Sequence record: MG770228.1
DNA from: Escherichia phage PMBT57
Length of the DNA: 64,000 bases
Strand: one strand, 5' to 3'
Position numbers and translations under genes: made by a program. Within the stretch, counting starts at the first letter, position 1. Every line of letters starts with the position of its first letter. Below the pieces are notes generated by a model. It was not told where the DNA came from and made no database searches. It worked only from the letters and a program-made list of their open reading frames with translations. Shown piece by piece: positions 41,738 through 47,243 of this stretch.

Positions 41738-43330
41738 TCACACGATATATGAAGAGAGTGGGTTAACACTTCCAGTATCATCACCATCATCCCACAATGG
41801 GTCACCTGATGTATTAACTGGAACCATACCTGCTTGTGGTTTCCACGGGTTCAGGTAGCCAAGCATTGAAATGGTATCAATACAGTCATCCTTACCTTTA
41901 AGACCATTGATAGTGGCTAAACGAATTTGCCCCATAAAGAGTGTCATGATTGGGCTATCTTTCATCTCAGCAGGAAAATACATCTTACCAGCTTTGAACC
42001 AGGGAACCACGAGGTTAAACCTTGATAGCTTACTGGTTACAGGATGAATACCCGGTTGGCCTCCACGACTGGATGCAAAGTTAAAGAACACATTACGGTT
42101 AAGCATTTCCTTCTGAAGAAGAGAAATAAAACCACCTTGCTGTCCGGTAGTTTCTACACCAACTTGTTGTGGTTGGTATTCCTGAACCAGACGGAATAAG
42201 TCATCAAAGTTCTTATCCATAGTTTGACGGCAAGCAATACCATCTACCCAGAACCAGTCACCGTTAGAACCATATGCCCATACTGATATTACAGAGTAAT
42301 CAGATACCTGCTTCTCGCTGGTAGCAAAGTCAGTGGTGATATAGAAGTTATAACAAGAACGTAGACGTAATAGCTGCGTACGGGAATACCATTTAATCTC
42401 TGAATCTTGAATCAGACGTTCATCTTCAGAGCTGATACGTAACATCAATTCCTGATAAAAGGATGCCAGCTTACCTGTCTTCAATGCCATCTGGTATTGG
42501 TCATTGATGTAGTCATAGGAGAAACGGTCTTCCCAAGCACCTTGAAATTCTTCTCGCGTACATGGGAATTTCTCACATACAGGCCATACGTTGACATCCC
42601 AAGCACCAGATTCAACTGCTTCAATAAGAATGTCTTCCTTATTAAAGGGAGTACCATTAAATATTACCTTGCGTCTTGTTGGGTCAAGAGCATGGTTCAC
42701 GCCCTTATATACCGTGTCTTTAATGGCCTCCATTGATGTACGTGAGCGAGCATCATCATCGCTAACTAAGTCATCCAGTACACAAAGAACGGGACGTTTA
42801 CCAAAAATCTTAGTACCACGAAGACCTGTCTTAGCACCGAACATCTTCACACCAAGACGGTGACCTTCAGCATTTACAAACTCAAGGTAGTTATCTGTGA
42901 AGGTAGCTTTAGGAATCCATTGTTGCAGGAATGGTGAATTGTTGTATCGAAACTCAATGTTCTTACGGGCAGACTTAACACCGTTATCCATAGAGTCAGA
43001 TACATAAATCATTCCTTCTACTTTACCCAAGCTAGGTAGATGCCCAAACACTGCTAAGAACAAAGTAAAGTATTCCATGAACAGAGTTGTCTTTGCTGCA
43101 CCACGGAAACATAAGTTAGCAATGTACTGATTCCTACTGGTTATCTTATCCAGCATCTTTAAGTGAACAGGAGGGGTTTTGTTTGATTCCCCCTCCTTAC
43201 CATTAACCAGCTTAATAAAGTTAGCAAAGGTCAGTGCAAACTCGGTTGGTATATACGTAGGGGTATTCAGAACGGAATAGTCCACTTGGTCTAGCCATTC
43301 ATCCAACTCCTGTTTAATTAGTTCAGACAT
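41738..43330 (-). CDS. gp68: terminase large subunit
   Basis: I prefer the start MSELIKQ at 43330 (GAGGAT RBS, ATGTCTGA overlap with the upstream stop); the track's start at 43372 remains possible. Shows an ATPase-like GAAKTT and a nuclease-type C-terminal half. Confidence 0.8.
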   Translation of the reverse strand: MSELIKQELDEWLDQVDYSVLNTPTYIPTEFALTFANFIKLVNGKEGESNKTPPVHLKMLDKITSRNQYIANLCFRGAAKTTLFMEYFTLFLAVFGHLPSLGKVEGMIYVSDSMDNGVKSARKNIEFRYNNSPFLQQWIPKATFTDNYLEFVNAEGHRLGVKMFGAKTGLRGTKIFGKRPVLCVLDDLVSDDDARSRTSMEAIKDTVYKGVNHALDPTRRKVIFNGTPFNKEDILIEAVESGAWDVNVWPVCEKFPCTREEFQGAWEDRFSYDYINDQYQMALKTGKLASFYQELMLRISSEDERLIQDSEIKWYSRTQLLRLRSCYNFYITTDFATSEKQVSDYSVISVWAYGSNGDWFWVDGIACRQTMDKNFDDLFRLVQEYQPQQVGVETTGQQGGFISLLQKEMLNRNVFFNFASSRGGQPGIHPVTSKLSRFNLVVPWFKAGKMYFPAEMKDSPIMTLFMGQIRLATINGLKGKDDCIDTISMLGYLNPWKPQAGMVPVNTSGDPLWDDGDDTGSVNPLSSYIV

Positions 43331-44015
43331 CAATAATATCCTCGTCTTCTCGAACCAGTGTGGAACCTGCAATTACTTTAGTAGGTGTACCAGCTTCAAT
43401 AGCTGCTTTCTGAGCTTCAGCCAACTGGGTTAGTGTGTTCTTGAGTTCAGTCAATCCAGAGTTTTCTCTCAAATCCAGATTGATATTAGTAACAGCATCC
43501 TTCGGTTTCTGGAGGTGAGTAAGGATAGAGTTGGCAGCATCACACTGTACCTTCTCACTGGTAGCATTCTTCATGAGCCATGCCTGATGGTTCAATGCTT
43601 CCTGAAACAAATCCTGATTAACAATCCATACTGGAATCAGTGATTGTTCCATAATGAGGTTTACTAACTTACCTCTATGGTAAGCAGATACATAAGCAGA
43701 GATGTCCTTCTCACTGGTTCCCCTTGCTACTAATTCAGCTTGTCTGTTGGGGAATGTTTTGAAGTAAGCATCTTTGTTGCTATACCCCATGTGTTTGTAA
43801 GTAACATATTGAACAGCATTAAGATAATCCTGGGTCTTAAACTTCCCATCCTTCATCACCCCAGCATAAGTCACAAAGTTATTTCTAATTTGCTCTGCTG
43901 CTGTCTGGTCTTGGGTCACATTGTTAATCATGTTTACCAGTTGGTCAGTAACACTGCTTTTAAACTGGGGAGGCAATGCAGAAACAATGTCTTTCTTCGT
44001 CAGTAGTGTGCTCAT
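43323..44015 (-). CDS. terminase small subunit candidate (N4 gp69 position)
   Basis: 230 aa with an AGGAAG RBS. It is the first gene of the leftward late operon and is coupled to the large terminase. Confidence 0.55.
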   Translation of the reverse strand: MSTLLTKKDIVSALPPQFKSSVTDQLVNMINNVTQDQTAAEQIRNNFVTYAGVMKDGKFKTQDYLNAVQYVTYKHMGYSNKDAYFKTFPNRQAELVARGTSEKDISAYVSAYHRGKLVNLIMEQSLIPVWIVNQDLFQEALNHQAWLMKNATSEKVQCDAANSILTHLQKPKDAVTNINLDLRENSGLTELKNTLTQLAEAQKAAIEAGTPTKVIAGSTLVREDEDIIDV

Positions 44016-44142
44016 AGTCTTCCTACAAATTATCTAGAGTGAAGAGGATTCTTTTCTTGGGGTTAGCACCCCTTGCAGAAACCTATACATAGATTTAGAC
44101 TTTAGACTTTCTTTAGTCTCCTTACAATAGTAAGACAGAGAC

Positions 44143-44484
44143 ATGGGGAGCCTATTGCCCAAAGGAACCAGTAACATGAGACTATTCTATAGTTTTGACG
44201 GTAATGACCAATGGAATGAGATAGACTTCAGTAAAATAGGTGGAGCTATCCCAGTTGGAGGGGCTATACCAGGTGACCATATCTTATGTCACGATGAGGA
44301 GTCTTTCCATTACATCTCCGGTATGATGTTAATCAATAACGTCACTGGGTTTACTGTCCATAAACCTGCACCAGTACGTGTCATTACCAAGCCTATTGAG
44401 GGTCTTGCATTCTTTACAAGAATACCTCAAAGTATCTCTATCAAACGACAGCGTGACGCCATCGAGATGACCGTGGTTGCTTGA
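44143..44484 (+). CDS. hypothetical protein (N4 gp70 position)
   Basis: 113-aa ORF. An alternative ATG at 44176 (MRLFYSF) has an AAGGA RBS. Divergent from the late operon. Confidence 0.55.
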   Translation: MGSLLPKGTSNMRLFYSFDGNDQWNEIDFSKIGGAIPVGGAIPGDHILCHDEESFHYISGMMLINNVTGFTVHKPAPVRVITKPIEGLAFFTRIPQSISIKRQRDAIEMTVVA

Positions 44485-44647
44485 TAAGCCATTGCCCGCC
44501 CAGGAGTTGGTGGCGGGAAACAGGGAACTGTTTGAATAACCACTCCAGCTACATTCACCCATCTCCAAGACACCTTTGTTATCTGCCATTGGGTGATGAG
44601 TAGTATCAGAGAGAACTGATTTAACAAACACACTCGGTATAGGAATT

Positions 44648-44675
44648 GGGAGCCATTTGGCTCCCTTTTTCTTTT
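44648..44675 (+). terminator. intrinsic terminator
   Basis: GGGAGCC-ATTT-GGCTCCC followed by TTTTTCTTTT. Confidence 0.7.
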
Positions 44676-44694
44676 ATGAACCAAGGAGTTCTAT

Positions 44695-45060
44695 ATGAAC
44701 ATTCGTCCTAATGAAGTTTATGGTATCAACCTAGAATACACTACAAACAAACCTGCTCTATTTCACTGCGGTTCCACCAATCTATTCCATGCTATGTGTG
44801 GTAATACCAAACCTCTTTACTTACCCGAATCGGATGATACCCATGCCCTACTAGGTAACTGGTTCTTAGAAGGTAAAGACATTAGTACCATTCTTCTCGA
44901 ACCAAGGAAGAAAGTAGCAATACCTACTAATGCATGGAATAACGAAGTCATTTACTTCCTAGCACCAGAAGGCTTTGAACCAGTGATAGAACAGAATCAC
45001 TTTAATCATGCAGTTACTTTCTACTTCAGAGAGACTTCAAAGTTATCTGCTTATAAATAA
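44695..45060 (+). CDS. hypothetical protein (N4 gp71 position)
   Basis: 121 aa with a strong AAGGAG RBS 7 nt upstream. Confidence 0.75.
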   Translation: MNIRPNEVYGINLEYTTNKPALFHCGSTNLFHAMCGNTKPLYLPESDDTHALLGNWFLEGKDISTILLEPRKKVAIPTNAWNNEVIYFLAPEGFEPVIEQNHFNHAVTFYFRETSKLSAYK

Positions 45061-45068
45061 GGAAAGCT

Positions 45069-45197
45069 ATGTGGTATATAACAGTTAAAGGTTTATCCGA
45101 ACCAGTGATGATAGATAGCCTGGCATTCGTAGAAGTAGGTCATCCTATTCTTATAGAAGGTAAGTTGTATGAAGTTGTTAGTATTTATAAGAGATAA
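45069..45197 (+). CDS. small hypothetical protein, 42 aa (N4 gp72 position)
   Basis: Hand-translated as MWYITVKGLSEPVMIDSLAFVEVGHPILIEGKLYEVVSIYKR, with an AAGGAAA RBS. Counting it brings the total to the 72 genes known for N4. Confidence 0.45.
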   Translation: MWYITVKGLSEPVMIDSLAFVEVGHPILIEGKLYEVVSIYKR

Positions 45198-45363
45198 ATA
45201 GGAAGTCTATTAGATAGATACCTTATAATTTTTTCTTAGTGAAAATAGTCATAGTTACTTATGAGTTCAGTATTTGGTGGGGCTACACCCCTTACACCAT
45301 AAGCACCCCCCCCCTGTCTTTACTAGTGTAGCCTTAGCCTACCCCACCTTGTACACGTTACAC

Positions 45364-45376
45364 GTTGCTTCGCAAC
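45364..45376 (+). promoter_or_regulatory. vRNAP early hairpin promoter (P1-like)
   Basis: GTTGC-TTC-GCAAC is a 5-bp stem with a 3-nt loop (the template strand forms GTTGC-GAA-GCAAC), followed by TTATGG. The predicted +1 is G45381, 11 nt from the loop centre. Confidence 0.8.
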
Positions 45377-45427
45377 TTATGGACATGTTGTCCGTATCTT
45401 ATCAATCAACTATTGGAGACTAATACT

Positions 45428-45754
45428 ATGACTACTCAGGCTAACGTTCGTATGACTGTAGGAACTCTGTTGGGTACTGTTAACGAAGCAGCAACTACTG
45501 TAGCTGATACATTCGGTACTGCTACTAAAGCAGTAGGTATGCTTAATCGTTATGTAACTAAACAAGCAGATAAACAAATCATTCGTGACAAATTAGAAAT
45601 GCATGAGTTTACCAATAAACTTATTGAAGAAACTGCAATGCAAGAAGCTATTCGTCAGAAACAAATCTTAGACTTCTGCAAAGATGAACAAAACAAAGAA
45701 TTGTTCTCTAATGCCTATGACCGTCTTAGCAAAATCTTAGCAGACTCTAAATAA
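45428..45754 (+). CDS. early protein (N4 gene 1 position)
   Basis: 108 aa from the ATG at 45428 (GGAGA RBS). The track's TTG start at 45365 lies inside or upstream of the promoter hairpin and is rejected. Confidence 0.75.
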   Translation: MTTQANVRMTVGTLLGTVNEAATTVADTFGTATKAVGMLNRYVTKQADKQIIRDKLEMHEFTNKLIEETAMQEAIRQKQILDFCKDEQNKELFSNAYDRLSKILADSK

Positions 45755-45766
45755 CAACAAACAAAT

Positions 45767-45790
45767 GGAGGCTCCTCGGAGTCTCCTTTT
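45767..45790 (+). terminator. hairpin terminator after early gene 1
   Basis: GGAGGCTCC..GGAGTCTCC imperfect stem followed by TTTT. Confidence 0.6.
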
Positions 45791-45830
45791 ACATAGAACC
45801 GATAGTTCAATAACTATCTACTTTAAAGAT

Positions 45831-45847
45831 AAGAAGCTCCGCTTCTT
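45831..45847 (+). promoter_or_regulatory. vRNAP early hairpin promoter (P2-like)
   Basis: AAGAAGC-TCC-GCTTCTT. The template strand reads GAAGC-GGA-GCTTC, the hairpin I recall from N4 P2 structural work. It is followed by TTTTGG, with predicted +1 at G45850. Confidence 0.85.
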
Positions 45848-45958
45848 TTGGATGAAGTAATGCATCCAATCCTGTATGAAATCTTAACCTTTTGTCTGGG
45901 ATTACTTACCGACAAAGTAGTCTCAACTAATCAAAATCAACTATCTGGAGAGTACAAA

Positions 45959-46345
45959 ATGGCTATCACTACTTTTGCTAAAACCTTTGGTCAGACTTCT
46001 ACTAAAACTGAATCCAACAATGGTTCTCGCCCGAAAGCTCAGTTCTGGATTAACGTTGGCTACGTAGCTAATGAAGGCACTGAAGATGAACGTTTCATCT
46101 CTCTGCCTACTGGTATTCCACTGGATACTCAGGAGCATCTGCCAACCAATTCCTCTAACGAAGACTTCCGTGCAATGCGTTGTGCACAGAACGATTTGTT
46201 AGACCAACTGATGGAATTTGCTAAGACTCTGGAACCGGGTCAAGAAGGAGTTATCTCCTTGCAAGTTCAACTTCGTCGAGTTAAAGAAGAAGCTCCTGCT
46301 ATCTCAGCAAGTGAGAATAAATATGCTCGTAAACTGACTTTCTAA
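45959..46345 (+). CDS. early protein at the N4 gene 2 position (gene 2 encodes the RNAP II cofactor in N4)
   Basis: 128 aa from the ATG at 45959 (GGAGAG RBS). The track's start at 45848 precedes the predicted transcription start. The functional assignment rests on gene order only. Confidence 0.65.
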
Positions 46346-46352
46346 TCTCTAT

Positions 46353-46378
46353 AGGACTACCTTCGGGTAGTCCTTTTT
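46353..46378 (+). terminator. intrinsic terminator
   Basis: AGGACTACC-TTCG-GGTAGTCCT followed by TTTTT. Confidence 0.85.
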
Positions 46379-46487
46379 AATTTTAACTATCTAAATACTA
46401 AAGTAGAGATTTTGACCCTTTTCGACGAAGGGATACTAAAAAGTAATGGATAGTTTGAGCAGATGTTTTAGAAGAAGGAGTATACAG

Positions 46488-46802
46488 ATGCATCCTCTTA
46501 TAAAACGATTCCTGATGGACTATCAGGAGTGGTTAGATAATGGAGCCAGTGAACCTCATTACCTGTTTGATAGGGGTAGTGGACTGTGTGTTCAACTAGG
46601 CAAGTATCTTAGAAGACAGCCAATCAGTGAAGAAACAGTAGATGCTCTGTGTAAGAGCTTTACTCATTTACTTCCTGATAATGATACCAATCTACCATTC
46701 AATGTAGATGTTCTCGACTACATGATGGAATGTTCTGATGGAAGATGTCATCTGAACCAAAGTCGAATTAATTGGATTAAGAGTCAGTTGGAGAGTAAGT
46801 AA
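46488..46802 (+). CDS. early hypothetical protein
   Basis: 104 aa from the ATG at 46488, with an AAGGAG RBS 7 nt upstream. Confidence 0.7.
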   Translation: MHPLIKRFLMDYQEWLDNGASEPHYLFDRGSGLCVQLGKYLRRQPISEETVDALCKSFTHLLPDNDTNLPFNVDVLDYMMECSDGRCHLNQSRINWIKSQLESK

Positions 46803-46805
46803 ATT

Positions 46806-47243
46806 ATGTCATATGAAATTGTAAAACATTGGACTTCTAAGGCTGGGCTGAAAGCTTGGGTATTGCTGGTAAATGGTGGTAGTCATCATTGTGGTTACGT
46901 AGAAATACCTGAAGCATTACTGGATAAAAACTTCTATGACTATATCTGTGATGATGAAGAAACACTTCATATTGCAGTACATGGTGGAGTTACCTATCAA
47001 GGTGTTCCTCAGTGGGCTGATGGGATTAAAGTCATAGGTTATGACTGTGCTCATGCAGGGGATAAACTGAAATGTCCTAAACAATTCATTGGCTCTCTTA
47101 GGGAGAGACTCTATGAGGATTCTTATGGAGTATGGCGAGATGAAGAATACTGCATCAATGAATGTGAAAGCATGGCAGACCAGTTAATTAACCTGATACC
47201 AAAATTAGGGTTTAACGATGAAATTCAGAACAGTAATGGTTAA
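46806..47243 (+). CDS. early hypothetical protein with His/Asp-rich motifs
   Basis: 145 aa. The motifs GGSHHCGYVEIP, VHGGVTYQG and IGYDCAHAGD suggest a metal site; the family was not recognised. Confidence 0.75.
   Translation: MSYEIVKHWTSKAGLKAWVLLVNGGSHHCGYVEIPEALLDKNFYDYICDDEETLHIAVHGGVTYQGVPQWADGIKVIGYDCAHAGDKLKCPKQFIGSLRERLYEDSYGVWRDEEYCINECESMADQLINLIPKLGFNDEIQNSNG

Follow-up and report, generated by a model that had tools for sequence, protein, structure and literature searches.

The termini of coliphage N4 were described by Ohmori, Haynes and Rothman-Denes in 1988 and, according to what later papers cite from that work (PMC3715699, PMC5557969, PMC3670811, PMC7650795), consist of a unique left end and variable right ends with short 3' extensions. 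The direct terminal repeat measures 390-440 bp, again with one left end and several right ends (PMC3715699, PMC5557969, PMC3896407), and the left end is injected first (PMC4496689). Phages T7 and T3, which carry short direct terminal repeats and pac signals, are similar in having fixed ends, a repeat of a few hundred base pairs that contains early promoters and a left end that enters first, and the ends of N4 relatives are classed as 'T7-like short DTR' by PhageTerm. However, the two groups share no sequence similarity at the ends, and N4 has a unique end on the left only. The lambda cos site (cosN and cosB) offers a second parallel: the site of cleavage is flanked on one side, a short and constant distance away, by a recognition element, and the terminase genes are close by. 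Lambda differs in its cohesive ends, in the lack of a repeat and in binding sites that are read by a known small subunit together with IHF, whereas the reader protein of the N4 junction is putative and its sequence is unrelated to cos.

The window, the whole 64-kb stretch of DNA analysed here, comes from an N4-type phage that is 98.5% identical to N4 (98.3-98.6% in a region alignment to EF056009). In this alignment the last 2554 bases of the N4 record correspond to window positions 42721-45274 and the first 2500 bases to 45275-47774, without a gap between them. The two ends of N4 are thus joined in the window, which is a rotated form of the genome. BLAST comparison of the N4 left end with the N4 right end revealed no second copy of the terminal repeat in the N4 record; hence, both the N4 record and the window are unit-length sequences. 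A sequence-only reading had proposed that the window is circularly permuted with collapsed termini, and the deposited N4 sequence bears this out: the ends are contiguous at 45274/45275 and a single copy of the repeat is present. The 166-nt stretch that this reading had flagged (45198-45363) is, as judged from the alignment, probably the junction at which the right and left ends of the linear N4 genome were joined by assembly.

Position 1 of N4 corresponds to 45275 and position 70153 to 45274, and window positions 45275-45440 are 100% identical to N4 1-166. By this homology, the unique left end of the genome maps between 45274 and 45275, inside the flagged stretch and one base before a GGTGG element (45276). 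In its true linear form the record would start at 45275 and carry about 410 bp repeated at its right end, which matters for annotation, genome length and engineering. The phage belongs to the same species as N4, and shares its first 166 nt and its biology; the only difference is the notation, a rotated circle that contains the repeat once. Since the N4 terminus and its repeat were already established in 1988, the location of the end as such is not a new finding.

The junction elements, the repeat, promoter P1 and gene 1 described below lie on the + strand. Gene order at the junction runs from gp68 and gp69 (both on the - strand) through gp70, gp71 and gp72 (stop at 45197) to gene 1 at 45428-45754. 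No genuine gene occupies 45198-45363, which is overlapped by two short, mechanically called ORFs (30 and 49 aa). Matches to known RNA families were absent from 44900-46000 (Rfam), and neither sigma-70 promoters nor terminators were found within the flagged stretch. The spacer from the gp72 stop to the end (45198-45274), which forms the non-repeat side of the junction, is AT-rich with 24.7% GC, as compared to 54.5% for 45275-45362 and 41.4% for the whole window. In the record of phage AlfredRasser (MZ501049, locus 1224-1409), a 61-aa 'hypothetical protein' (bas69_0081) is annotated over the junction, the C run and promoter P1; this is almost certainly a spurious call on non-coding terminal sequence.

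The direct terminal repeat is present in the window as a single, collapsed copy at 45275-45686 and spans P1 and most of gene 1. Its right edge at about 45685/6 is placed by homology to the right boundaries of KP8 (404-bp repeat), IME11 and UE-S5b (401 bp), all of which fall inside gene 1; the variable right ends reported for N4 correspond to 45664-45714. The right cut of KP8, IME11 and UE-S5b lies near TTCTGCAAAGAT (45674-45686), which covers the FCKD codons of gene 1 (45674-45685), and that of Achromobacter phage JWAlpha lies a few bases short of it. The G7C right boundary, TTTAAGATAA/G (a slash marks the cut here and below), is homologous to window positions 45821-45836, just upstream of promoter P2. 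In the Pseudomonas phages LIT1 and LUZ7, the right cuts follow G-rich tracts. A motif common to the right-end cuts was looked for and rejected: the sites of the Enquatrovirinae and JWAlpha, of G7C and of LIT1 and LUZ7 differ from each other, and none of them resembles the motif at the left end. The sequence-only reading had placed the physical ends in or around the flagged stretch and had named an end inside gene 1 as the contrary outcome. This is correct for the left end, at 45274/45275, but not for the other edge of the repeat, which by homology lies about 390-440 bp downstream, inside gene 1. A right-end signal may be embedded in the coding sequence of gene 1.

The early promoter P1, a target of the virion RNA polymerase, consists of the hairpin GTTGC-TTC-GCAAC at 45364-45376, with a 5-bp stem and a 3-nt loop, and transcription would start at about 45381. 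Compared to the N4 promoters P1-P3, the hairpin is that of P1, and it agrees with the described architecture of virion RNA polymerase promoters, which are defined as the segment from -17 to +1 (PMC4496689). It also matches the promoters annotated in KP8 and the P1 oligonucleotide of PMC12633501. Two compensatory base-pair changes are found in the stem, which reads CATGC-TCC-GCATG in IME11-type phages. A second hairpin, GGACATGTTGTCC (45381-45393, likewise with a 5-bp stem and a 3-nt loop), begins at the inferred P1 start, with the centre of the P1 loop at 45370 taken as -11. It is kept in four genera with a change in the loop only (T/C) and probably forms a 5' stem-loop on the first early mRNA.

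The left ends measured or deposited for G7C, KP8, IME11 and UE-S5b correspond to window positions 45273-45276. The annotated 1160-bp repeat of G7C starts at the base homologous to the N4 left end, and the 404-bp repeat of KP8 starts 2 nt earlier. Read-start peaks of IME11 begin with GTGGCTGGGGCTACAC and map to 45273-45275 (PMC3896407), while the 401-bp repeat determined for UE-S5b by PhageTerm starts with TGGCTGGGG. In the records of KP8, G7C and UE-S5b, both repeat copies (404, 1160 and 401 bp, respectively) are present.

Immediately left of the end lies a motif at 45256-45274, comprising a T at -19, TATG at 45260-63 and the heptamer CAGTATT at 45268-74, with the family consensus T..GTAYG-N4-YAGTAYT/. 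TATG-N4-CAGTATT (45260-45274, with four bases between its two parts) is the most informative element of the junction and was absent from the elements listed in the sequence-only reading. The ends of N4, LIT1, LUZ7, Pylas, IME11, G7C and KP8 lie 0-1 nt from the 3' edge of the heptamer; measured ends from three subfamilies coincide with this edge. The junction reads CAGTATT/TGG in N4 and the window (reference record), GCAGTACT/TCAG in LIT1 and GCAGTACTT/CAGT in LUZ7 (both run-off sequencing), TAGTATT/ACTT in Pylas, a member of a third subfamily (PhageTerm; C11 at +31), CAGTGGT/GTGG in IME11 (read starts) and TAGTGGTG/TGAC in G7C (annotated repeat). One record is discordant: the JWAlpha junction has CAGTGTT, 32 nt and C7, but its record opens 5 nt ahead of the C run, which is 27 nt rightward of where the cut is predicted.

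The C9 tract at 45306-45314 starts 32 nt from the end. It is the sole homopolymer of at least 8 and the sole C or G run of at least 7 in the 64 kb, where about 0.07 would be expected, and among all 88-nt segments of the window, the one beginning at 45286 is richest in C (42%). LUZ7 and LIT1, whose ends were mapped by run-off sequencing, carry a C7 run at positions 29-35 and 30-36, respectively. A C run was present in every examined relative that keeps the segment, although its length varies even among near-identical isolates, with C9 in N4 and the window and C10 in AlfredRasser (1291-1300). The family range is 7-13, its lower bound being that of the isolates examined, since both database scans described below demanded at least seven C.

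IMG/VR was scanned with the pattern C7-N15-45-CCTACCCCACC, which combines the C run with a conserved 11-mer designated block C (45338-45348), yielding 72 loci. About 40 of the 72 are immediately preceded by a gp69 homologue and an N4-type terminase of 50-89% identity. About 25-30 loci are chance matches in GC-rich contigs, in agreement with a control scan with the 11-mer reversed, in which none of 25 loci was linked to a terminase. A further scan that required only AGTACTTAC and a C run gave about 35 additional terminase-linked loci. Altogether, the signal TAYG-N4-YAGTAYT/, followed by 28-33 nt and then by C7-13, was found in about 40 distinct N4-like junction sequences (more than 70 terminase-linked loci), the same spacing being seen in the isolates with measured ends from three subfamilies. 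The positions -19, -15, -14, -12 and -8 were chosen by no scan or filter and agree in 13-16 of 16 non-redundant loci (T-15 in 16/16, A-14 in 14/16, G-12 in 14/16 and G-8 in 13/16). N4 itself, with its heptamer CAGTATT and its 31-nt spacer, is slightly off the consensus of YAGTACT and 28-29 nt. The C run is probably part of a DNA-cutting signal, as its fixed distance from the end across the family suggests, and the earlier proposal of the C9 tract as a candidate for terminus or packaging recognition is thereby strengthened.

The scans returned further material. A scan of IMG/VR with block A (GGGGCTACACCCCTTACAC, 45279-45297) gave mostly known isolates and chance coding matches. A set of IMG/VR contigs (L126-L130, L132, L173 and L175) shares CCAGTACTTACGGGTATAAC...GCTAGTACCCCCCCC and has no N4-type terminase or gp69 in the flanks that were fetched; these contigs may hold an unrelated conserved element or represent another phage group with a similar end signal.

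Conservation close to the end was examined in an alignment of 10 sequences from four genera (Enquatrovirus, Gamaleyavirus, Kaypoctavirus and Moovirus); the KP8 and N4 genomes are reported to share 46.6% nucleotide sequence identity (KP8 paper). Invariant columns number 12 of 61 over the 60 nt left of the end versus 53 of 91 on the repeat side (45275-45362). Invariant blocks comprise GGGGCTACA-CCC-TTACAC, which occupies the extreme end, a C run of 7-9, CCTACCCCACCT, a further two TACAC pentamers, the P1 hairpin and the second hairpin. Block A, a terminal block kept in the Enquatrovirinae, is invariant in all 10 sequences and absent from the left ends of the Pseudomonas phages and Pylas. Block C lies about 65 nt inside the end and is kept in part of the family: LIT1 positions 68-82 (CCTACCCCACCTTGT) are an identical 15-mer to window positions 45338-52, and 4 of 20 loci that were found without requiring block C have it within 2 mismatches. 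As block C is kept in a minority only, the core signal consists of the cut motif and the C run. Tandem Repeats Finder reports TACACGT x2.1 at 45352-45366. The tandem ACACGTT at 45353-66, named as a terminus candidate in the sequence-only reading, is present, but a better interpretation takes it as two members of a conserved set of four TACAC pentamers, located next to P1 and restricted to N4's own subfamily. Within 80 nt, this region holds 4 of the 40 TACAC pentamers of the window (including those at 45284 and 45293), and their cores are invariant in the four genera.

Escherichia phage PhAPEC5 (KF192075; our loci L037 and L021, positions 1-200) keeps the cut motif and block A, but has neither C run nor block C, P1 and gene 1. 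Its sequence jumps to a position homologous to about 1194 of G7C, so that it is without almost exactly the interior of the 1160-bp G7C repeat, including two small genes, and tblastn of 1-36000 and 69449-71248 detected no gene 1. The gap may reflect either a genuine deletion or faulty assembly. If PhAPEC5 is a real and viable genome, the C run is dispensable.

The signal adjoins the genes for the terminase and gp69. The large terminase subunit gp68 (41738-43372, - strand), the presumed end-making nuclease, matches PHROG 38 ('terminase large subunit') with E = 1e-105, and a match to the T7 nuclease-domain family was found only below threshold (E = 0.062). The gene for gp69 (43323-44015, - strand) overlaps that of the terminase and encodes a family-core protein. 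Homologues from Achromobacter, Sinorhizobium and Rhizobium phages are 58-65% identical to it, and 1371 matches were found in the database, which makes gp69 unusually well conserved among phage proteins without an assigned function. No match to gp69 was obtained in Pfam or PDB, and a structure model gave weak fold matches only, two of them to small terminases; one source calls the protein a small terminase. We infer that gp69 is a candidate small terminase or DNA-recognition subunit. In many distant loci the gp69 homologue starts about 110-330 nt upstream of the cut or C run, and in the window its start lies about 1.3 kb upstream of the cut.

Conservation is seen to the left as well as to the right of the cut, and the mature left end lacks the outer half of the conserved sequence. 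The signal would hence be read on uncut DNA, which fits a terminase cleavage site, and we consider it likely that the junction signal serves for both terminase cleavage and recognition. Conserved sequence on both sides of the cut in diverged relatives and linkage to the terminase genes, features expected of cos- or pac-like sites, are both seen. The putative signal is composite, with TATG-N4-CAGTATT/ outside the end, a 31-nt spacer, a C run of at least 7 inside and, for part of the family, CCTACCCCACC about 65 nt in. The terminase, predicted to be gp68 and perhaps acting with its neighbour gp69, would recognise this signal on replicated DNA before it is cut and cleave directly after the heptamer, with the C run always about three helical turns away. 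The position of the end, the conservation and the spacing are shown, by identity with N4 and homology to measured ends in the case of the position; the C run is a putative binding element, and the terminase the putative reader of the signal. Besides the JWAlpha record, the PhAPEC5 record and the slight departure of N4 from the consensus, one further point counts against the cleavage model: the first-injected left end is presumably the last to be packaged, so that the exact cut would be the finishing, or termination, cut, which is an unusual carrier of a recognition signal.

On a broader scale, the Schitoviridae may have in common a single ancient signal for the left end (TAYG-N4-YAGTAYT/, a 28-33 bp spacer, poly-C of at least 7 and, in some lineages, CCTACCCCACC) that is read by the terminase with gp69 and yields the unique left end; we regard the case for this as evenly balanced. 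Since the signal is still present where terminase identity has dropped to about 50%, sequence alone should suffice to predict where any N4-like genome has its physical left end. If so, ends could be assigned for many N4-like genomes that have been deposited as arbitrary circles. The heptamer, the spacer length and the C run would provide the bases to mutate for the question, standing since 1988, of how the N4 terminase makes one exact and one ragged end. No description of a family-wide cut motif or of a C run at a fixed position was found in the searchable literature, in which the 1988 termini work is represented by later citations.

Instead of directing a cut, the C run and block C may act at the mature end, as a landing site that holds or protects the end injected first. 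Ejection proteins or the virion RNA polymerase, for example, could then bind there, and gyrase could supercoil the first ~500 bp and extrude the P1 hairpin. The elements do lie inside the repeat, within the first-injected 500 bp and just upstream of P1, the C run is conserved throughout the family, and N4 early transcription needs gyrase on a topologically constrained linear genome whose left end enters first (PMC4496689). However, the conserved motif reaches 19 nt outside the end, into sequence that the mature left end lacks, and the C run is fixed relative to the cut and not to the hairpin, from which it is separated by ~50 nt in N4, 97 in LIT1, 45 in LUZ7 and ~10 in locus L076. Furthermore, no protein is known to bind here. 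We consider a purely mature-end function unlikely; such a role of the inner elements and one in cleavage could possibly coexist.

Cleavage by the terminase also accounts better for the arrangement than a function in transcription, in which block C and the TACAC repeats would form an upstream element of P1 and the C run would merely travel with the module. Block C and two TACAC pentamers abut the P1 hairpin in the Enquatrovirinae and are invariant there, and PhAPEC5, which lacks P1 and gene 1, lacks them as well. Yet, compared to the N4 promoters P1-P3, the C9 tract, the proposed composite stem and block C all lie upstream of the -17 to +1 segment and thus outside the promoter as defined, and P2 (~45833-45845) is without such upstream blocks. 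In LIT1, block C is located ~50 nt upstream of the hairpin, locus L032 keeps the C run and block C with a different hairpin, and the spacing of the C run follows the end and not the promoter. This explanation is accordingly improbable.

Likewise improbable is a role of the region as a DNA structure, either a hairpin or cruciform, or a G-quadruplex on the bottom strand (i-motif on the top strand), in telomere-like replication or protection of the end. The sequence-only reading had described a GC-rich composite stem that loops out the C tract, and complementary arms do exist: GGTGG (45276-80) and GGCTACAC (45281-88) pair with GTGTAGCC (45326-33) and CCACC (45344-48), and energy minimisation of 45275-45362 as DNA yields this stem (-8.58 kcal/mol). 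However, the fold is no more stable than expected by chance, with z = -0.60 and 56 of 200 shuffled sequences folding as well (z = -0.09 for the other strand). Compensatory changes in the stem were absent across 10 relatives, in which the 8-bp helix pairs in 65% of cells. The left arm, part of block A, is invariant, whereas the right arm GTGTAGCC is the least conserved segment of the terminal 90 nt, being absent in the KP8 group and shifted in G7C. The composite stem-loop is not supported as a part of the mechanism. As for a quadruplex, the top G4Hunter score of the window is located here (-1.96 over 25 nt), the minimum C run of 7 could supply two G3 tracts, and N4 ends carry 3' extensions (PMC7650795); against this, no canonical motif of four tracts of 3 or more is present with loops of up to 12 nt, one match being obtained only when loops of up to 30 are allowed, and the flanking C tracts are unconserved outside N4's subfamily.

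That the real ends of this isolate lie elsewhere, and that the match to N4 position 1 is a database convention only, is hardly credible: many N4-like records have been rotated to match N4 without measurement, several of them starting at the same base, but read starts in IME11, PhageTerm in UE-S5b and Pylas and run-off sequencing in LIT1 and LUZ7 converge on the homologous site, the deposited or annotated repeats of G7C and KP8 point to it too, and the window is 100% identical to N4 across it.

The AT-rich spacer outside the end contains a small inverted repeat of A and T runs, TTTTC-TTAGT-GAAAA, at 45231-45245. Its G7C-type counterpart reads TTTTG-CATGT-CAAAA, with the closing pair swapped, and distant relatives have T-run/A-run elements just left of GGGTAYG. 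The inverted repeat at 45231-45245 may bend the DNA or act as an accessory site for binding close to the cut.
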